This document shows positions 11,904-27,552 of a stretch of 64,000 nucleotides of DNA, piece after piece. The stretch covers positions 28,274,001 to 28,338,000 of the forward strand of contig CM059432.1 in assembly GCA_030390025.1 (NCBI GenBank), in the 5' to 3' direction. The notes below the pieces were generated by a model. That model was not told where the DNA came from. It saw nothing but the letters and a program-made list of their open reading frames with translations, and did not search any database. Each line of letters opens with the position of its first letter. The stretch's first letter is position 1. A program made the translations under genes and the position numbers. The stretch is from Squalus acanthias. Taxonomy: Eukaryota.

Positions 11904-14900
11904 CTAATAAAGAAAAATATAAGCAGAATAAGATACAAATAGAATAATAAATCATTCTTTGGGTAAATGTAATTTTTATCTGATTACCCTTCAGTGAAGA
12001 GCCTTGTGACGTGTTACTATGTTAAAGCCGCTATATAATTGCAAGTTGCTGTTGTTGGATAATAGATGGTTGGTATGAGTACACAATGGACAATAGACAG
12101 GAGGTAATGAATTATCTAAAGGTTTCAATGAAAGAGTAATCAATCCTGTATATCCCAATGATATACAGGATAATTGGTGACCGACAGTAATTAGCAATGA
12201 CTAATTTACTGCAAAACTAAAGGTAATTTTGTCAACATCAGCAACATCTGGAATCAGAGGCTGAGTTATGAGGGAAAGCTGAAGAAACATGCCTTTATGA
12301 TCTTTGAATGGAGACAACTGAGAGGTGATCTCATAAAGGTGTATAAGATATTAAATAGTATAGAAAAGGTAGATCCAAAACACTACTTTAAAGTAGTGAA
12401 ATGGATTTTTTTAATAAGCATTCTAGGGATGGACAATGCTGGCAAGGCCACATTTATTGCCCATCCCTAATTTCCCTGAGAAGGTGGTGGTGGGTCTTCT
12501 TGTTGAACGAGTGGTGATGGTTTGTATGACAGAATGACTTGCTAGGCCACTGCGAGGGCAGTTAAGCGTCAAGTACATTGGTGTGGGGCTGGAGACACGT
12601 ATAGGTCAGACGGGGAAGGCAAGCTGGTTTCTTTCCCTAAAGGACATCAGTGAACCCATTTAGGGTTGATGTCAGGAGGTTCTTCACAAAAGTGTGATTA
12701 ACACATGGAATTGACTCCAGATGAAGTAGTGAAGGTAAAAGCCTTGGAATCATTTAAGTAGATGCTGTGCCGGCAACACTCTAGGGTTTATCCTGAATGG
12801 ATGAGCTCCGATTGGTTGAAAGACCTTTCTCATCTGTATCTATCTTGTGAAAACCACCAGTCTAAAATGTTGCCTCAACATCACATTTGTATTCGTTCTA
12901 TTATGCAATTCAAACCTTCTTCTGACTAGATAAAGGATCCTTGTGGAGGGAAGAGGACAAGACATCATGGGAGTGTTGTAAATCAAAAGAGAATCCGTGG
13001 GATATGTGTCAAAGACTTCACCTGAGCAAATAATGAGACAAACATCCCACTATGGGGAGACACTGAGTAGAGGCCATGAACTTTCCCATTGGAGTGGAGA
13101 GAAAAATCAGAGAGTGCGTCACCCTGGGCCATTTTCACATACCTCTCAGCATCAGCTGCACAGCACCACTGCTGGAGATTCAGAAGCAGGTCTCCAGCCA
13201 GATAAGGTGCATGACATGGAAAGGAGAAATAAGGAGAAAAAAATAAAAATGCATTTTAAAGAAGAAAGAGTATCCAAGATTATCTACACCTCGATAAATT
13301 AGGAGACTGTTCATTTCCTTTATGAATGGTTCCACCATATAAGTATTGACTGTGCTCATTGGAAATCTATTCCATTTGGTTACAACAACAACAACAATTT
13401 GTATTTATATAGCGCCTTTAACGTAGTAAAACATCCCAAGGCACTTCACAGGAGTATTAAAAGACAAAAAAGTTTGACACCGAGCCACATAAGGAGAAAT
13501 TAGGGTAGGTAACCAAAAGCTTGGTCAAAGAGGTAGGTTTTAAGGAGCATCTTAAAGGAGGAAAGAGAGGTCGTCAGCGTACATGTGGAAACGGACGCTG
13601 TGTTTTCAGATGATGTTGCTAAGGGGCAACATGTAGATGAGAAGTAGGAGGGGGCCAAGGATAGATCCTTGGGGGACACCAGAGGTAACGATGCAGGAGT
13701 GGGAAGAGAAGCCGTTGCAGGTGATTCTCTGGCTACGATAAGATAGATAAGAATGGAACCAGGTGAGTGCAGTCCCACCCAGCTGGACGACAGTGGAGAG
13801 GCATTGGAGAAGTATTGAGTGTTCAACCGTGTAAAAGGCTGCAGACAAGTCAAAAAGGACGAGGAGGGATAGCTTACCTTTGTCACAGTCACAAAGGATA
13901 TCATTTGTGACTTTGATGAGAGCCGTTTCGGTACTGTGGCAAGGGCGGAAACCTGATTGGAGGGATTCAAACATGGAATTGCGGGAAAGATGGGCACGGA
14001 TTTGGGAGGCGACAACACGTTCCAGGATTTTGGAGAGGAAAGGGAGGTTGGAGATGGGGCGGTAGTTTGCAAGGACGGAGGGGTCAAGGGTTGTTTTTTT
14101 GAGGAGAGGGGTGATGACGGCAGATTTGAGGGAGAAGGGGACAGTACCTGAGGAGAGAGAACCATTAACAATGTCAGCTAACATGGGAGCCAGAAAAGGT
14201 GGTCAGCAGTTTGGTGGGAATAGGGTCGAGGGAGCAGGAAGTGGGTCCCATTGACAAGATGAGCGCGGAGAGGTCATGAGGGGAGATCGGAGAGAAACTG
14301 GAGAAAGATGTGAGTTCAGGGCTAGGGCAGGGGGGGAACTTTAGATGAAGTTTCGCCTGGTGGGCTAGGGGTAGGAAGGGAAGTGGCAGAGGCAGTTGAA
14401 TGGATGGTCTCAATTTTAGAGACAAAGAAGTCCATGAGCTCCTCACACTTGTCGGAGGTGAGGGTGGAGGAGACAGGGGAGAGGGGTTTAAGAAGAATAG
14501 GAGCCGGGGTTTATCTTTGCATTCCAGAATGATTCTGGAATAGTGAGAAATTTTGGCAGACGAGAGCAGGACCCGATAATGCTTTATGTGGTCTAGCCAG
14601 ATCTGGCGGTGAATGGCTAAACCAGTTGTCCGCCATATCCGTTCAAGTCTGCGTCCCTTGGACTTAAGGGAGCAGAGATGAGGGCCATACCAGGGGGAGC
14701 AGCCAGGGTGAGAGAGAGTAATTGGTTTAATAGGGACTAGGGCATCAAAGGTGGTGGTGAGGGTGTGGTTGAACAGATCGGTAGCTGCAGAAATGTTATG
14801 GTGAATGGAGGGCCAAAGGCTGGACAGTTGGGTTTTCATAAGTGCAGTTGTAAGAGAGATGGGAGAGTGTTTTTTCCAGGGGCGGACACAGAAGGAAGGA

Positions 14901-16272
14901 GGGTTGGAGGGGTGGGGGGGCGGATGGAAGGGGGATGTGGGTGGAGAGTGATACGAGGAAGTGGTCAGAGATGGCCTTATCTGCGATTGACACAATGGGA
15001 GTAGCAAGGCCATGAGAGATGACAAGGTCGAGGGGGTGGCTGTGAATATGGGTTGGGGAGTTTACATGGAGGGAGAGATTAAGGGAGGATAGGAGACTAG
15101 TGAACTCAGAGGAGAGAGAGCATGATGAATTGAGATGGAGGTTGAAATCACCGAGGATGAGAAGTCGTTCGGTGCAGAGGCTGAGGGAGGAGAGCAGAGA
15201 AGATATCTCAGTAAAAAATGTTTTATGGTACTTGGGTGGGCGGTAGAGAACAAGAATTTTAAATGAGAGGTGAGAGGGGTGGAACAAGGTGAGATGCTCA
15301 AAGGAGGAGAAAGTGCCGGAGGAATAGGGGGACAGACCAAGGTGTGATTTGGTGATGAGGGCCACACCGCCACCACGGCGGTCTGAGCGGGGCAAGTGGT
15401 GGAAGGTATAGCCAGGCGGGGAGGCTTCATTTAAGGGTAAGGTGTCATCACCCCTCAACCAAGTTTCCGTCAGGGCCATGATGTCAATGCAATCATCCAC
15501 GATAAGCTCATGGATGGCCAGGGCCTTGTTCGCAAGTGAACGGACATTCTGGAGGGAGATGCGGAGAGGGTCAGTGATGGCTGCCCCACTGCCAGCATCC
15601 ACAGGGTCAGCGCTGGAGGTATGAGTTGGATGGGGAGGAGATTGGCAAGATTCGCCCCCAGTGGGCCCGCTGGGCAGGAAGGTCATCGAGAGAGTAGGAT
15701 GGGACAGTTGGAGTTGCTGCTCATAAGGCGGCAGCGACGAGTGCCTCGATGGGCCCTTTGTAGGATGCCAAGAGAGGCAGAGAGGGAAGCTGTCGGCTTA
15801 TCTAAGAGGGAGTCGAGCCTGGGACGGTGGCAGGAGAGTAGGAAGGTCGAAGAGTAATGAGGGATTGGGGTAGGGATTTGGAAGGGCAGAGTATCCGAGA
15901 GAGGAGAGATGAAAGGAGGCATGACGACAGGGGAGAGCAGTCCGGGAGGGATAGAGAGAAAGGAAAAGAGGGGGAAAAAGTGGAAAAGTATTGAATGGTT
16001 CAGGTTCGGAGCGTCATCCAGAGTGCGCACGCGAATGGACACGGGAAAAGCTCAGGTTACATAGGCCTGTTTAAATGTAATAATTAATGGAATACATATT
16101 TCCTGGTAGCAGGGAATAGGTTGGAGACAATAGTAGGGAGACCAGGGTCAAAGTCAGAGGTCCTATGGAAGGACAAAGCTGATGTAAGCAGGATGGGGCC
16201 GGTACGGAGCATCGACGAACCGCTGTCCAAAGCAGGTGAGTGAAGTCCAGAAGCTATTTGAAGGGTAGAGAG

Positions 16273-16466
16273 TGTGGTAACACAATACAGCTTCCTGTGA
16301 CTCGAACTTTATTGCATCACTTCCTGTGATTAGTCCAGGATAAATACTGGACTGATCAGTTGGATCCTGGAGAGGCATAGAGTAAGACCTCTTTTGTATG
16401 TAGCACCTTTTTAGTTGATTAAAGCTTACTTTAAGTTCACCACGCGTAAGGCTCATTCTTACGACA
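16273..16466 (+). repeat. 5' LTR (194 bp)
   Basis: Identical by eye to 20547-20740; ATTAAA at 16418-16423. Confidence 0.95.
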
Positions 16467-16544
16467 ATTTAATCAACTTTGGAAAACTTCGCACTCAAAC
16501 TTTTTGGACGAACTCGGAACTAAGGATCCAGGGAATCACCCATC

Positions 16545-19500
16545 ATGGAAAACATCCTTAAACCATCGCGTCTTGACTTGGACCCAAACACCCCAGCAGC
16601 CGGTAAGGTGTGGAAACACTGGTATCGCACGTTTGACAATTTTCTTGAATATTGTAAGGCTGATGATAACTCAAAGTTGCGGATACTCATCAACTGTGTC
16701 ACCCCGAATGTATTTCAGTATGTGGAGAAATGGGACAGTTACGAGGAGGCAATTCGGACGCTTAAGAGACTATATACTAAGACACCGAATGAGGTCTATG
16801 CCAGACATCTACTAGCTACAGCCCAACAAGGGCCGGAGGAATCCATTGATAAATTCCTCCAAGAGCTTCGCAGACTTAGTATGGACTGTAACTTTCGGGC
16901 GGCCTCAGCTGAGCTGTACCATGAAGAAATGATCCATGATGCTTTCATCTGCGGGCTTGCCTCCCCATTTATACGCCAGCGTCTACTGGAAAGTAAGACA
17001 CTTGAGCTTCAGAAAGCTTATGACATGGCTTGCTCTCTAGATCTGGCAAAAAGAAATGCAGACCTTTATACAGTGCCCAGACCTCGGTCTACTGCCTTAA
17101 CTACAGTCAGGCAATTTAAGAGGCCACAGGTGAACTCTATTAGGGAGGTCTTTATCCCTGACGATCAATCTGATGACTTCACTGATGAAGAGGATGATGA
17201 CCCCACTGTGGCAGCCTCTTGGCAATCTAAGAAATGCTTCTTTTGTGGTGATGAGTTCCACCCTCGGAAATTCTGCCCTGCTCGCAATGCGTTTTGCAGT
17301 CATTGCAACAAAAAGGGTCATTTTGCAAAGGTTTGCCTATCAAGAGCCTCTACGAGGGCTTATCAAGCTAAGTCCTACCGAACTGCCCCGGTAAGGGCCT
17401 ATCAAGATGTTCCAGCTAAAATCTATCGTGCTTCTTCTCGAAGAAACACACCTAGAGTTTCAGCCACTCTTTGTGCAACGACACCAATTACAGCTGCTTG
17501 TCCTCAGAACCTATTCCATGCAGCTACAAAAGCATCAATTAATGGACATACTTTAGATGCCTTAATTGACTCAGGTAGCACTGATAGTTTCATTAGGGAA
17601 CAGATTGTTGCAGAGTTAAAGCTACATGTTTTCCCATCGGACCAGGCAGTTGCGATGGCTCAGTCATCACTTAATACCAGAATTTCTGGCTTTTGTATGG
17701 TTGAAATAACACTTAATGGTCGCAGGTATCCCTCCACCCGGCTTTCAGTGCTCAAGGACTTATGTAGTGATCTTATCTTAGGGCTGGATTTTCAAAAGCA
17801 GCATAAGAAGCTCACCATTGAGTTCGGCGGATCCAAACCTGAACTCACTATTTCTAATATACTACCTCGATTACCGTTCTGTGCATTGTCAGCAGCTTCA
17901 CTGGATGAACCCTCACTGTTTTCCAGTATCCCTCCTCGATGCAAACCGATTATAACAAAGTCACGACGTTTCAGTCAGGAAGACCAGACTTTTATTGCGG
18001 CTGAGATTTCTCGGCTTTTAGCAGAGGATATCATCGAGCTTTGTTCGTCGCCATGGCGCGCCCAGGTCGTTATTGTTAAGAACCCTCTACAACCTCACAA
18101 GAAACGGCTGTGCATTGACTATTCACAGACCATCAATCAATATACGGACTTGGACGCATACCCATTGCCACGCATCGATGATATGGTTAATAAATTGGCT
18201 GAGTACACGGTGTTCTCAACATATGATCTGAAAAGTGCCTATCATCAGGTACCCTTGAAGGTCTCAGACAAGCAGTATACGGCCTTTGAAGCCAATGGAC
18301 GGCTGTATCAATTTCGTCGCCTCCCCTTTGGGGTCACTAATGGAGTGGCTGTCTTCCAGCGAGCAATGGATGACCTGGTCAAACAGGAAGACTTGAAGGA
18401 TACGTTTCCTTATGTGGACAATATTACTGTCACAGGTCGCAATCAGTGGGAACATGACGCCAATCTCCAACGATTTTGGGACGCACTCCAGCACCGTAAT
18501 TTGACATTAAATGCGGCTAAATCCATTGAGTCACAACCAACCATCAACATCCTTGGCTATTGTGTGGGCAATGGCATCATTAAACCTGACCCTGAAAGGC
18601 TTCGCCCACTCCAAGAACTCCCGCCACCTAAGAATCCGGCCTCCTTGCGCCGGGCCCTCGGCCTGTTTGCATACTATGCTAAATGGATTCCTAACTTCTC
18701 GGACCGAATCCAACCTCTACTGAAGGCCAGCACATTCCCACTAGACACAACGGCTGTTGCAGCCTTTAACCTCCTGAAAAAACAGTTGGAGAAAGCGACT
18801 CTTCACTCCATCGATGAGAGTCTTCCTTTTGTCGTTGAGTGTGATGCCTCGGAGGTGGCGATCTCGGCCACTCTGAATCAGGAAGGTCGTCCGGTGGCAT
18901 TTTTGTCCAGGACTTTTCAAGGGGCTGAGCTACATTATCCTCCAGTCGAGAAAGAAGCTACAGCCATCATAGAGGCAGTAAGGAAATGGAGTCATCTCCT
19001 AGCTCGCCAGCACTTTACCTTAATCACGGACCAGCGATCGGTCGCCTTCATGCTCGATAATCGAAAACGGACCAAAATTAAAAATAATAAAATCCAGCTT
19101 TGGCGGCTGGAATTGGCCTCTTTTGGTTACACCATCCACTATCGACCTGGCAAGGAGAATGTGGCTCCGGATACCCTCACACGAGCATTCTGCTCCGCCA
19201 TGGCACCCTCTACGCTCGTAGACATCCATGATGGGTTGTGTCATCCGGGCGTTACTCGCATGCTACACTTCGTGCGGTCCCGAATTCTCCCATTCTCTAC
19301 CGGGGATGTAAAGAAGATTTGCTCGGACTGCAGAGTCTGTGCGGAATTGAAACCTCGGTTTTTCCGCCCCTCGGGTGGTATACTCATACATGCGACCCAG
19401 CCAATGCAACGGCTTAGCATCGATTTTAAGGGGCCGTTGCCCTCTTCAACTCGCAACACTTATCTATTGACCATGGTCGATGAGTATTCCCGCTTTCCGT

Positions 19501-20483
19501 TTGCCTTTCCCTGCCCCAATATGCTGACGACCACGGTTATCAGCTGCCTTGAGCAGGTATTTGCTTTCTGTGGCATGGCATCCTATGTTCATTCGGATCG
19601 GGGCCCTTCTTTTATGTCAGGAGAACTCAAGGCCTATCTCTCAGAACGGGGTATTGCTGCCAGCAAAACGACGCCTTATCACCCGGTCGGGAATGGGCAA
19701 GTCGAGCGTTTTAACGCTATCCTCTGGAATGCGGTACGTCTGGCTTTGAGATCTCGGGGCCTACCCAACCAGCAATGGGAAGCAGTACTTCCAGACGCAT
19801 TACACTCCACACGGTCCCTCCTTTCGACCGCCACAAATGCGACGCCTCATGAACGGTTCTTCCGATTTCAGCGTCGCTCATCCTATGGGATATCTCTCCC
19901 GTCGTGGCTGACTACACCGGGACCAGTGCTACTCCGAAGATATGTCCGGGCGTCTAAGAATGACCCCCTGGTAGATGAGGTTGAGCTCACTGACGTCAAC
20001 CCTACCTACGCCTATATTCGGTATCCTGACGGTCGGGAATCTACCGTGTCATTGCGGGATCTGGCTCCCTGCCCGCCGAAACATAGAGGGACACCAGGGG
20101 ATGATATTGTACCAGGCACATCTCTGGGCTCGCCAGGTGCCTCTCATCACGATCTGGATCTGATGCCGGCTGGTACCTCACTCCAGCGTGCCGACCTGGG
20201 GCAGACTGACTATGAGCCCGTCGGGGCTCGCACGCGCAGCCACGATCCACCCCGTACCGTACGCTCGGAAACGGATCTGCCACAGCCCTGCCCGACACCC
20301 GTTCGGGCACCAGTACACAGTCAGGATCGTCCTGACCCCTCACAAAGCGGGCTGGATCACTCGGACTCTGGTCCACGGCCCGCGGCGGGTAAACAGGCTA
20401 GGGGCCCTCTACCGCTACGAGAACCCAAACGGGTGCGGCTCTCCCTCGTCCAGCGGCTACGAAATGGAGGGAGAATGTGGTAA
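16545..20483 (+). CDS. Gag-Pol polyprotein (1312 aa)
   Basis: Two CCHC knuckles, protease LIDSGS, RT (YDLKSAYHQ, LPFG, YVDN), RNase H (CDAS, EKEA, TDQ), integrase HHCC + D(FKG)/D(RG)/E(RFN); no stops or frameshifts. Confidence 0.96.
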   Translation: MENILKPSRLDLDPNTPAAGKVWKHWYRTFDNFLEYCKADDNSKLRILINCVTPNVFQYVEKWDSYEEAIRTLKRLYTKTPNEVYARHLLATAQQGPEESIDKFLQELRRLSMDCNFRAASAELYHEEMIHDAFICGLASPFIRQRLLESKTLELQKAYDMACSLDLAKRNADLYTVPRPRSTALTTVRQFKRPQVNSIREVFIPDDQSDDFTDEEDDDPTVAASWQSKKCFFCGDEFHPRKFCPARNAFCSHCNKKGHFAKVCLSRASTRAYQAKSYRTAPVRAYQDVPAKIYRASSRRNTPRVSATLCATTPITAACPQNLFHAATKASINGHTLDALIDSGSTDSFIREQIVAELKLHVFPSDQAVAMAQSSLNTRISGFCMVEITLNGRRYPSTRLSVLKDLCSDLILGLDFQKQHKKLTIEFGGSKPELTISNILPRLPFCALSAASLDEPSLFSSIPPRCKPIITKSRRFSQEDQTFIAAEISRLLAEDIIELCSSPWRAQVVIVKNPLQPHKKRLCIDYSQTINQYTDLDAYPLPRIDDMVNKLAEYTVFSTYDLKSAYHQVPLKVSDKQYTAFEANGRLYQFRRLPFGVTNGVAVFQRAMDDLVKQEDLKDTFPYVDNITVTGRNQWEHDANLQRFWDALQHRNLTLNAAKSIESQPTINILGYCVGNGIIKPDPERLRPLQELPPPKNPASLRRALGLFAYYAKWIPNFSDRIQPLLKASTFPLDTTAVAAFNLLKKQLEKATLHSIDESLPFVVECDASEVAISATLNQEGRPVAFLSRTFQGAELHYPPVEKEATAIIEAVRKWSHLLARQHFTLITDQRSVAFMLDNRKRTKIKNNKIQLWRLELASFGYTIHYRPGKENVAPDTLTRAFCSAMAPSTLVDIHDGLCHPGVTRMLHFVRSRILPFSTGDVKKICSDCRVCAELKPRFFRPSGGILIHATQPMQRLSIDFKGPLPSSTRNTYLLTMVDEYSRFPFAFPCPNMLTTTVISCLEQVFAFCGMASYVHSDRGPSFMSGELKAYLSERGIAASKTTPYHPVGNGQVERFNAILWNAVRLALRSRGLPNQQWEAVLPDALHSTRSLLSTATNATPHERFFRFQRRSSYGISLPSWLTTPGPVLLRRYVRASKNDPLVDEVELTDVNPTYAYIRYPDGRESTVSLRDLAPCPPKHRGTPGDDIVPGTSLGSPGASHHDLDLMPAGTSLQRADLGQTDYEPVGARTRSHDPPRTVRSETDLPQPCPTPVRAPVHSQDRPDPSQSGLDHSDSGPRPAAGKQARGPLPLREPKRVRLSLVQRLRNGGRMW

Positions 20484-20546
20484 CACAATACAGCTTCCTG
20501 TGACTCGAACTTCATCCCGGCCTCCTAATCTTTTGGGGGGGGAGAA

Positions 20547-20740
20547 TGTGGTAACACAATACAGCTTCCTGTGACTCGAACTTTATTGCATCACTTCCTG
20601 TGATTAGTCCAGGATAAATACTGGACTGATCAGTTGGATCCTGGAGAGGCATAGAGTAAGACCTCTTTTGTATGTAGCACCTTTTTAGTTGATTAAAGCT
20701 TACTTTAAGTTCACCACGCGTAAGGCTCATTCTTACGACA
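20547..20740 (+). repeat. 3' LTR (194 bp)
   Basis: Follows the PPT; identical to the 5' LTR. Confidence 0.95.
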
Positions 20741-22083
20741 GAGAGTTCGAGGATGCAGGTTGTTGCTGTAGGAATGAGAGTCGGTAGCGGTGCAGAAAGA
20801 TGATGGCTAAATTGACGCAAGCTGGAGGTCACCGTAGATCAAAGCGGCTGAGAAAAGGTAAAACCGCAAGCCAGTGACCAGAAAAGCTGAAAACCAGTAG
20901 GACGAGTCACCGGACAGCAAGTGGAGCAGCAGCTGCTACCTACAAGCCAGCAGAGCTGAAAACCCAGTAGAACCAGTTCAGCAGTTTAAAGGTAAAAATC
21001 TTTTAGCAGCAGAGATAGAGACATGGCAAGTAAGTCTTACAGTGAAATCCAGTTTAGTTCCATGTAGTAAAGTGCAGAAACATAGTGTAATCCAGTGTAG
21101 TTCAAAGCAGAAACCTAGTGTAGATGTCCAGAGAAGTCCAGGAGATCAGAAACCAATTTGACAAAGGAATTCCGCAGCTTAAGACTTGAAGTGACTGAAA
21201 AGCAGAGCAGCGCCACAGCCGCTGAGTCAAACCGTATAGTCAATGATGTTCTGTCCGCGAGGAATCCAGTGATAGAGGTCAAGTTTCAGTAGAGTTCCGG
21301 CAGTTGAAAGAGCTCAGTGAGAACAAAGACACCAGGGGATGGGCAGTGGACTCTGCAGGGGGAGCTTTAAACTTGTAATATGAACTTGTAGTTTGGGCTG
21401 AAATGCCTTCACTATCAGAGGCAGCGTATCTTAAGCAATGGACGAAAGGAGATTGGGGGAAGAAAGGGCAAAAGATGGCAATGGATGACCACGGATACAG
21501 AAGGAAAGAGCAGCTCAGGAAGGAGCTGCCAGCCCAGGAGCCATCTAGAACCATTCATAAAGGAAATGAACAGTCTCCTAATTTATCGAGGTGTAGATAA
21601 TCTTGGGCACTCTTCTTTCTACCTGCATCTGCATTGTGTTGAAAGCAAGGCTCACCTCACTGCCTCCTACTTTAATTCTCTCCCAGCTCCTCAAATTGTT
21701 GAACTACATACTCTTCAATCTTCCCTTTCTCCTACAATCTAGAGATTTTTAAAACTCAGGCCTAGCGTCCCCTAACCACTACTTTGTTTATCCTGCACTC
21801 TTTTCCACTCTTTCAAAACTTGGTTTTGCTCTGCACTATTTGCCTTGATTCTTCACCTAGCTTTCTCAGTTTAAAAAAGGGCTTGGTGCCATTACAGGAG
21901 GAAGTTGAACATGGCCTGTATGGGTTCTGAGAATGTACCTGCAGAGTGGGTTTGCTGTGTGGGCATTTTCTCATTTCTACTCTCTAATGATGCTGCATTA
22001 TGGCAGGCACATTAATATCACACAGGGTATCGGCTAGCAATGTCAATAATTTGGATACAAGAGCAATAAAACATCTCCCCTAC

Positions 22084-25114: not shown

Positions 25115-25710
25115 TTTGTGTCCTCCTCACAGCTTACATTCCCACCTAGCTTTGTATTGTCAGCAAACTTGGATACCGTGCACTCGGTCCCTTCATCTAA
25201 ATCATTAATATAGATAATAAATAGCTGAGGCCCAAGCACTGATCCTTACGGCACCCCACTAGTTGCAGTCTGCCAACTGGAAAATGACCCATATATCACT
25301 ACTCTCTGTTTTCCGCCCGGTAACCAATCTTCTATCCATGCTAATATATTACCCCAACCCCATGAGCCCTTATCTTGCATAGCAACCTTTTATGTGGCAC
25401 CTTATTGAACGCCTTTTGGAAATCCAAATATACTACATCCACTGGTTCCCCTTTATCTACCCTGCTAGTTACATCCTCAAAAAACTCTAATAAATTTGTT
25501 AAACATGATTTCCCTTTCATAAAACCATGTTGACTCTGCCTAATCATATTATGATTTTCTAAGTGCCCTGTTAACACTTCCTTAATAATGAATTCCAGCA
25601 TTTTCCCGATGACTGATGTCAGGCTAACTGGCCTGTGGTTGCCTGTTTTCTCTCTCCCTCCTTTCTTGAATAGCGGAGTTACATTTGCTACCTTCCAATC
25701 CGCTGGGATT
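25115..25710 (-). mobile_element. CR1 LINE RT fragment
   Basis: DWKVANVTPLFKKG, QHGFMKGKSCLTNLLEFF, YLDFQKAF. Confidence 0.9.
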
Positions 25711-25761
25711 CCTGTGAAATGAAATGATGAAACCATCAGAGCAAACATGACCGTGGCTGAC

Positions 25762-25884
25762 CTGTGAGACAATCCAGAAGCTGCCTCTGACGATCAGCGT
25801 GTGCTGTCAAAACTTCAATGATTTCCGTGTCTTCAGAGTTCAGAAGCAGCTGGGATTGACTGATGCTGTCAAACTGTCGGAACA
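25762..25884 (-). CDS. TG: Thyroglobulin exon (~exon 23)
   Basis: tgcag|...|gtcagc, 123 bp, phase 1-1: VFRQFDSISQSQLLLNSEDTEIIEVLTAHADRQRQLLDCLT; keeps frame between neighbouring exons. Confidence 0.85.
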
Positions 25885-27009
25885 CTGCAGGCAGAAAAAT
25901 AAAGAACTGTGTTTTAAAAAACATAAGAAACCGTGGAATGAGAAAACGCCATTCAGTCCGTTAATTGGCACTTGGTGCCTGGTGATCCAAGTTGTGCAAA
26001 TTGAAAGAGATACCAGGCAGAGCATAGAAAGTGCCAATTAATGGAGAGTTTCCATATATTGGCTTTACACAATACCCCAGGCAGAGGCATGAAGACAAGT
26101 AGAATACAAGTAACAAGGGAAACATTATGAAGTACGTTTTAAGAGGTCAAGCAATGTAGCCCTTTTCCCTCTCTATGTCCCTTGATCAGCTTTCACTTCA
26201 TTTTAATATGAGGCAAATGATCCCTTAATACTGCAATCTATTTCTATCATGCCACCCAGCTAAAACTGTTGATCCTGCAGTTACCAAGCAAAATTCCAGA
26301 ATATTCAGCTCTCCTCAAATCTTCACTAATCAACCTTGGATTGCCCTCCTTCACAAACAACACCCTGCCCAATCGGCACCAATGTATCCTGTGAGTTATT
26401 TGATCAGCTCAGTCTACATGTATCACTAAAAACCTCTGATCCCGTTCCCAGATATTTATCCAACTTCATTTCTCTTCCTGTTAATGTTCTTCCCTGAATG
26501 AGAATGTCCAATGACCTGGGACCTTAGAGTGTGCACATAAAGCAGAGTCAACTGATTCCATTTGTGTTGGGAAAGTGCATATTTGAATATATCATGAATT
26601 AACCCTTACCGCACCATGGAGTACACACTTCCAGACACATTACTCTGGGGGCTGCCAAATAATGACTCATTAGTCAGTAGCAACTGTTTCATGTTTTGAT
26701 ACATAAAAACACAGCAGAGAGTGACCTCGTTGAAGCTACAATGTGATCACGTGTGTCATTTTTTGATTGACTAAACAAAAGTAGGCCCAGGACCTGTTTT
26801 GTTGTTGGCTTTTTAAAAAATGTTGCTTCAACCTCCAAAATGGATGGTAGGGGCTGGGAAGAAGAACATCGGCAGTGAAGTTTAGCCTTGAGAAGAATGG
26901 CTCAGCTACCTTCCAACCGATTACACACTTAGTTTGTATAATCTGGGAGACGACACTTTCCAGGGTAGAGTCTCAAAGGTAAATCACAATAGTAGTGACA
27001 GTCAGGAAG

Positions 27010-27552
27010 CCTGGTCTCCTTATTTAAGGAAGGATATAAATGCGTTGGAAGCAGTTCAGAGAAGGTTTACTAGACTAATACCTGGAATGGGCGGGTTGTC
27101 TTATGAGGAAAGGTTGAACAGGCTAGACTTGTATCCGCTGGAGTTTAGAAGAGTAAGAGGTGACTTGATTGAAACATATAAGATCCTGAGGGGTCTTGAC
27201 AGGGTGGATGTGAAGAGGATGTTTCCTCTTGTGGGAGAATCTAGAACTAGGGGTAACTGTTTAAAAACAAGGGGTCGCCTATTTAAGACAGAGATGAGGA
27301 GAAATTTTTTCTCACAGAGGGTTGTGAGTCTTTGGAACTCTCCTTCTCAGAGGGCGGTGGAAGCAGAGTCTTTGAATATTTTTAAGGCAGAGGTAGATAG
27401 ATTCTTGATAAGCAAGAGGGTGAAAGGTTATCGGGGGTAGGCGGGAATGTGGAGTAATCAGATTAGCCATGATCTTATTGAATGGCGGAGCAGGCTCGAG
27501 GGGCCGAGTGGCCTACTCCTGCTCCTAATTCGTATGTTCGTGTGTTCGTATG
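27010..27552 (+). mobile_element. CR1 LINE 3' fragment
   Basis: [25 protein letters not shown]...RGDLIETYKIL. Confidence 0.9.

Follow-up and report, generated by a model that had tools for sequence, protein, structure and literature searches.

Complementarity between the primer binding site and the LTR suggests self-primed reverse transcription in a Gypsy retrotransposon of Squalus acanthias and in its animal relatives

What primes reverse transcription of a Gypsy element that has no primer binding site (PBS) beginning with TGG after its 5' long terminal repeat (LTR)? This question is raised by an uninterrupted Gypsy LTR retrotransposon of 4.47 kb, which occupies positions 16273-20740 of a 64,000-nt stretch of the Squalus acanthias genome (assembly GCA_030390025.1, contig CM059432.1, positions 28,274,001 to 28,338,000 of the forward strand), called here the window. 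The original prediction, made from the letters of this DNA, was that the element primes itself, and our analysis leads to the same answer: it is likely that reverse transcription is primed with the element's own RNA. This reading is well supported by covariation of two complementary segments in 26 families, by control elements that have no such complement and by a tRNA look-alike that fails a conversion test. The features on which it depends are the following.

16273-16466, plus strand: 5' LTR of 194 nt with TG...CA ends; the 3' LTR has the same sequence
16413-16423, plus strand: LTR arm AGTTGATTAAA, the complement of the PBS; predicted to be the self-primer or the 3' part of it, with the predicted cut after 16423
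16418-16423, plus strand: ATTAAA, the sole AATAAA/ATTAAA in the LTR, at the 3' end of the paired arm; candidate polyadenylation (polyA) signal
16445-16463, plus strand: U5 hairpin CGTAAG/CTTACG, arms 16445-16450 and 16458-16463, 7 bp with a G-U pair, within the loop of the duplex
16468-16478, plus strand: PBS TTTAATCAACT, one base past the terminal CA of the LTR, no TGG

The PBS is the exact reverse complement of the LTR arm, as had been claimed, and a single base (16467) lies between it and the end of the LTR. The duplex is exactly 11 bp long, with mismatches flanking it on both sides. The solitary canonical hexamer of the LTR, the stem inside the loop and the lack of a TGG-starting PBS were likewise all found where they had been described. 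A complement of at least 11 nt to the post-LTR sequence arises in 3 of 5,000 LTR shuffles, and the fold of 16413-16480 has a z-score of -4.15, none of 200 shuffles being equally good. In the 3.7-Gb genome a pattern search that left both arms free registered 1,953 LTR-PBS junctions of the window family; among the 100 listed, every LTR arm is exact and 98 have an exact PBS. A second family of the same genome (L113), 79% identical in reverse transcriptase (RT), has the same 11-mer within a 13-bp duplex and 884 junctions. Both families have a U5-type stem of 7-9 bp near the LTR end (9 bp in L113), which is inconsistent in other families.

Protein searches gave 1,101 homologues in 8,000 scored candidates, the named hosts being cnidarians, crustaceans, an aphid, nematodes, echinoderms, tunicates and cartilaginous fishes. 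Matches in ESM Atlas were unnamed Gag clusters only, the search of IMG/VR returned no relatives of the element, and a motif search of part of the mollusc and annelid paper supplements yielded no sequences. DNA of the relatives was obtained from 80 metagenome loci and 12 loci contaminating metagenome-assembled genomes (MAGs). Before counting, L029, L032, L093 and L109 were dropped as having no usable sequence upstream of Gag, and L034 as having 98 nt upstream and no LTR; L024 and L103 were re-anchored manually on the LTR-end junction. Forty-three loci were scored, 30 representatives were folded, and removal of the near-duplicates L169, L030, L043 and L107 left 26 families, whose RT identity to the window element ranges from 47 to 79% where RT was recovered. 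In all of them the PBS starts at CA plus 1 nt and lacks TGG, while the loop can be anywhere between 24 and 66 nt long. Pairing of the PBS with the LTR of the same family averages 10.7 of 11 bp (perfect in 19 families and at least 10 bp in 25), versus 7.8 of 11 with foreign LTRs, where 2.6% of pairings are perfect. The own-LTR value was matched by 0 of 100,000 permutations in a test that takes no account of kinship between families, the arm of each family being the best match upstream of its PBS (shuffle controls were made). Compensatory changes were registered between near sisters: one pair each in L026/L030, L023/L025 and window/L021, and several in L023/L027. The duplex, 11 bp in the window, is mostly 13-19 bp in the relatives. 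Pairing of the PBS with the element's own LTR is a clade-wide trait, conserved and covarying among the relatives, a check that had been proposed with the original prediction.

Elements of other clades served as controls. The contaminated MAGs provided 22 further loci, 11 of them with delimited LTR ends; all 11 belong to other Gypsy clades and have TGG at most 4 nt from the LTR end (L199 as a variant), their self-complement reaching at most 8 nt. Old elements of the S. acanthias genome, which we label Mag-like by features of that lineage, have TGG in five of six cases, and the sixth is deleted at the junction. In a quick RT tree a branch with 99% support in the Shimodaira-Hasegawa-like approximate likelihood ratio test (SH-aLRT) separates the 22 self-complementary rows from 14 TGG rows. 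This self-complementary branch is sister to the Mag-like rows at just 88% in a tree with midpoint root and unnamed references, and both RT trees constructed here are quick trees. The bacterial MAGs G004, G005 and G007 (L104-L111, L189-L204) contain many animal Gypsy elements, so they must be heavily contaminated with eukaryotic DNA.

The element has RT, RNase H and integrase motifs, and by analogy with Tf1 of Schizosaccharomyces pombe the following sequence of events can be proposed. The genomic RNA would fold back, so that the LTR arm pairs with the PBS, and RT-RNase H would cut it after the terminal AAA of the arm (16423/16424); in Tf1, according to PMC7175516, PMC10085805, PMC4600332 and PMC5341516, RNase H cuts between nucleotides 11 and 12. 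The freed 3'-OH would then prime minus-strand DNA across U5 and the short stretch from the cut to the polyA site, and the segment from 16424 to the polyA site may act as the R homology for strand transfer. Copying of the retained primer into the plus strand should keep PBS and LTR complementary.

The start of the transcript was originally placed near 16413, which is doubtful. In favour of it the duplex is exactly 11 bp long and begins at T|A, the arm begins with AG in 19 of 26 families, and the sibling subfamily that has an extra A forms a 12-bp duplex; the Tf1 primer is 11 nt long (PMC7175516 and PMC10085805). Against it, pairing upstream of the 11-mer averages 2.85 bp versus 0.64 bp in foreign pairs (0 of 100,000 permutations) and reaches 2 bp or more in 21 of the 26, so that the pairing RNA includes upstream bases in most relatives. 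Two motifs of the window LTR may be relevant here.

16339-16346, plus strand: TATA-like box GATAAATA, of putative function, 74 nt upstream of the paired arm
16356-16361, plus strand: initiator-like TCAGTT, which the sibling subfamily (L169) retains; an alternative candidate for the start site

In the second S. acanthias family TATAAA stands 92 nt upstream of the arm. TATA-like boxes at these two distances predict a start about 45-60 nt upstream of the arm; most other families have no TATA-like motif in a comparable range. CTTCC motifs at 16291 and 16320, upstream of the TATA-like box, are presumably ETS-like, and motifs that we take to be of the same kind occur in both S. acanthias families. 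Judging from these sequences, either primer length differs between families or what primes is the 3' portion of a longer leader.

The alternative that survives best, itself unlikely, is that the duplex serves chiefly for polyA occlusion or for RNA circularisation, the PBS pairing with the 5' or the 3' copy of the LTR, and that priming is accomplished otherwise, for example by the arm's copy in the 3' LTR or by a second RNA acting in trans. The arm indeed ends with AAA or a near variant and contains AATAAA/ATTAAA in 17 of 26 families (19 as judged by the PBS), its 3'-LTR copy can pair upstream of AG wherever the RNA starts, and retroelements need to suppress polyadenylation at the 5' LTR, as stated in PMC3694450. 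Masking alone, however, does not need the register that priming needs, and the PBS is fixed at the same distance from the LTR in all 26 families in spite of the variable loop; a canonical hexamer is missing from both arms in seven families, and no alternative primer site was seen. As an additional role of a self-priming duplex, masking of the polyA signal, which the original prediction assigned to the 5' LTR only, is plausible, though not universal. Four of 26 families have a canonical hexamer in the loop, where the duplex does not cover it, two of them in addition to one in the arm; in the 3' LTR, too, folding predicts that the hexamer is part of a weak local hairpin. The genome search for retrocopies with a polyA tail after the hexamer found none. 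With a start of the RNA at 16413, 5 nt would separate the hexamer from the cap, and there might be no need for masking. The overlap of hexamer and arm may have a simpler reason, namely that the cut has to precede the polyA site in order to leave a repeat for strand transfer. Identical LTRs with opposite polyA jobs are also found in HIV-1, foamy viruses, RSV/MMTV/HTLV-1 and MoMLV, which use U1 snRNP, a U3-located signal or weak sites, and in the part of PMC3694450 that was consulted masking by the PBS is not listed among the mechanisms.

Besides the disregarded kinship and the best-match choice of arms mentioned above, several observations weigh against self-priming. The longer leader 16369-16500 keeps the duplex, but its overall stability is ordinary (z = -0.66). 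A hairpin just past the predicted cut site was considered as a feature of the clade and rejected, being 4.0 bp versus 3.6 bp in shuffles over 30 loci, and a Tf1-type three-duplex 'pretzel' is not consistently present, the folds varying between families. A further objection comes from a tRNA: nucleotides 12-26 of host tRNA-Thr(AGT) (L119:1486-1559) match window positions 16411-16425 at 14 of 15, and the PBS of L049 pairs with tRNA-Thr at 11 of 11. Scoring of tRNAs was confined to tRNA-Thr(AGT), the genes retrieved being those of tRNA-Thr, -Lys, -Cys and -His. One may suppose that a 5' fragment of tRNA-Thr (nucleotide 1 to about 24, the end of the D-arm) primes at the PBS and that the match with the LTR is a by-product. 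The PBS of the window can pair with nucleotides 14-24 of this tRNA by ten Watson-Crick pairs and one G-U, and half-tRNA priming is known for some Copia lineages (PMC6317226). Since the PBS begins with TTT, the 3' end of a mature tRNA is unable to pair with it. Over the 26 families the PBS pairs on average at 8.5 of 11 positions with tRNA-Thr of S. acanthias, which is not the tRNA of the relatives' own hosts, versus 10.7 with the own LTR, and own-LTR pairing extends 2.85 bp further on average. In retroviruses the tRNA primer gets copied into the plus strand, so priming with tRNA-Thr should have converted the PBS into the complement of the tRNA. The tRNA-templated form occurs at none of the junctions, against the 1,953 of the window family and 884 of the second one, and this favours self-priming. 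Thus, the comparison of the PBS with host tRNAs, proposed at the outset as a check, did reveal a close D-arm match, which then failed the conversion test, and we regard priming by tRNA-Thr as very improbable. The LTR arms of many relatives are likewise near to this tRNA. The resemblance may be a coincidence under the constraints that an initiator-like motif and a hexamer impose, or may be a relic of an ancestral primer.

A chance or DNA-level palindrome with no role in priming, for which one could adduce the A+T-rich and partly hexamer-constrained arms, has a negligible probability, being opposed by the shuffles, the permutations and the fold z-score, by the fixed place of the complement at the PBS and its absence from the control clades, and refuted by the covariation.

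Self-priming would then have to be placed among the known systems. In common with Tf1/Tf2 of S. pombe, Tj1 and Tosmo/Tcry of the Tf1/sushi group, the window element has the order protease (PR)-RT-RNase H (RH)-integrase (IN), a post-LTR PBS complementary to an 11-nt segment of the LTR and no tRNA primer. It differs from Tf1/sushi in having two CCHC knuckles and YxDN and in lacking a chromodomain and GPY/F, which is usual in Tf1/sushi chromoviruses and lost in some members. The two knuckles and the YVDN motif of its protein are as originally described, and a profile search of this protein agreed that there is no chromodomain; Chromo gave no match in the window protein, in its C-terminal 212 aa, in 12 relatives or in the Pfam annotations of the homologues. 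GP[YF] occurs in the last 200 aa of none of 60 proteins, and SH3_Tf2-1 gave no match. In the S. acanthias genome no long chromodomain open reading frame (ORF) and no DUF4939 was found, and the two chromodomain matches in a contaminated MAG have no RT nearby. By these markers the element is not a chromovirus, and Tf1 likely belongs to a different lineage; the earlier suggestion that it stands outside Tf1/sushi holds at the level of markers, and not as a position in a tree with named references. The best match in PDB, Ty3, does not place the clade. In contrast to Tf1, the arm of the window clade ends in a polyA hexamer, the duplex is usually longer in the relatives, no consistent 'pretzel' is formed and the arm may not be the 5' end of the RNA; the hosts are also other than those of Tf1/sushi, namely cnidarians, arthropods, nematodes, echinoderms, tunicates and cartilaginous fishes.

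The nearest set of markers is that of GyDB Cigr-1: 2 CCHC, a protease flap of xxNG/GANG type, ILG, IN after RH, loss of GPY/F, no chromodomain and no env (PMC2774666). Circe of the Osvaldo clade has the same marker set, so this match, made by markers only, is not unique. The one ORF of Cigr-1, of about 1,200 aa, and its short LTRs would also fit the window element. Its clade, named for an element of Ciona intestinalis, is also reported in molluscs and annelids, and the open literature searched gives no priming mechanism for it. The Mag lineage (A, B and C clades) likewise has two CCHC knuckles and short LTRs and no chromodomain, but the Mag-like elements of S. acanthias, with TGG PBSs and an RT identity of 24-35%, fall on a branch of their own. 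Outside chromoviruses, self-priming was predicted from LTR/PBS complementarity for the TAR lineage of plant Ty1/Copia (Houba, Osr-1), which differs from the window clade in superfamily and in hosts; this prediction suggests that the trait arose more than once (PMC6317226). In comparisons with P0001, P0014, P0032 and L021, the RT of the window element is 67-75% identical to those of cnidarian and crustacean elements and 59-60% identical to those of other members of the clade from sharks and rays; its greater closeness to the former may reflect horizontal transfer or old paralogy.

The LTR/PBS complementarity is a real clade-wide feature and a variant of the mechanism demonstrated so far mainly in yeast Tf1. 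A bolder reading can be put forward only tentatively, with the odds against it: a non-chromovirus, animal-wide Gypsy clade would have invented self-priming independently of Tf1 and in a different manner, using an internal LTR primer of an RNA that starts further upstream and is cut exactly where the polyA hexamer ends. A single duplex would thereby provide the primer, fix how long the strand-transfer repeat is and silence polyA at the 5' LTR, and the segment may descend from a captured D-arm primer of tRNA-Thr. Self-priming has been regarded as a hallmark of Tf1/sushi chromoviruses, with the predicted plant Copia case in addition, and the open literature searched reports it for these and for none of the window clade; Repbase, the GyDB pages and Butler 2001, which may record the feature, were outside this search. 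If the proposal is true, a large second self-priming Gypsy lineage extends from cnidarians to sharks, which would imply that tRNA priming was lost repeatedly. PMC3601003 raised the question whether priming by a hairpin is the ancestral or the derived state, on which the window clade bears. Self-priming elements would evade silencing aimed at a tRNA-type PBS, and tools that look for a PBS report none for this clade because its PBS is not of the tRNA type; the LTR/PBS self-complement offers a simple diagnostic for its classification. Since a vertebrate genome contains nearly 2,000 young copies, host RNA should give a direct reading of the start, the cut and the primer.

The remaining features of the element are these.

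16268-16272: 5' target-site duplication (TSD) GAGAG, the same 5-mer being at 20741-20745
16545-20483, plus strand: Gag-PR-RT-RNase H-IN in one ORF of 1,312 aa, without chromodomain, GPY/F or env
17235-17336, plus strand: two CCHC zinc knuckles
18411-18422, plus strand: RT motif YVDN (in the clade mostly YLDN, some YLDD)
20466-20515, plus strand: extra purine tract followed by 40 nt copied from the LTR start, both preceding the true polypurine tract (PPT)
20535-20546, plus strand: PPT
20547-20740, plus strand: 3' LTR
20741-20745: 3' TSD GAGAG

The TG...CA LTRs, the TSD, the PPT and the domain order PR-RT-RH-IN are those of Ty3/Gypsy (Metaviridae). All 40 scored genome matches to 16274-16560 are 100% identical, and the window family is plainly very young and recently mobile. 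YVDN is a variant of the window copy and not of the family: YLDN was found in all 8 RT motifs read in 8 loci of the same family (one locus has none and a tandem locus has two), as well as in 41 of 60 proteins of the clade. Prevalence of YLDN rather than YxDD in the RT of the clade is seen even though the window family has moved recently. The extra purine tract with the copy of the LTR start is common to 2 of 8 other loci of the family, so it has spread by transposition. One locus (L173, G000:C1:566000-575500) is a tandem array of the window element with common LTRs and a period of 4,247 nt. The sibling subfamily (L169, L170 and L172) has an LTR of 183 nt, 85% identical, with R-U5-PBS almost unaltered, and more pairing is predicted in it beyond a bulge. 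The window element apparently sits in what we take to be a decayed minus-strand LINE (region 13500-16272 and from 20746, with endonuclease- and RT-like frames at 13606-15797), and fragments at 25341-27440 of the window presumably derive from a CR1-like RT.
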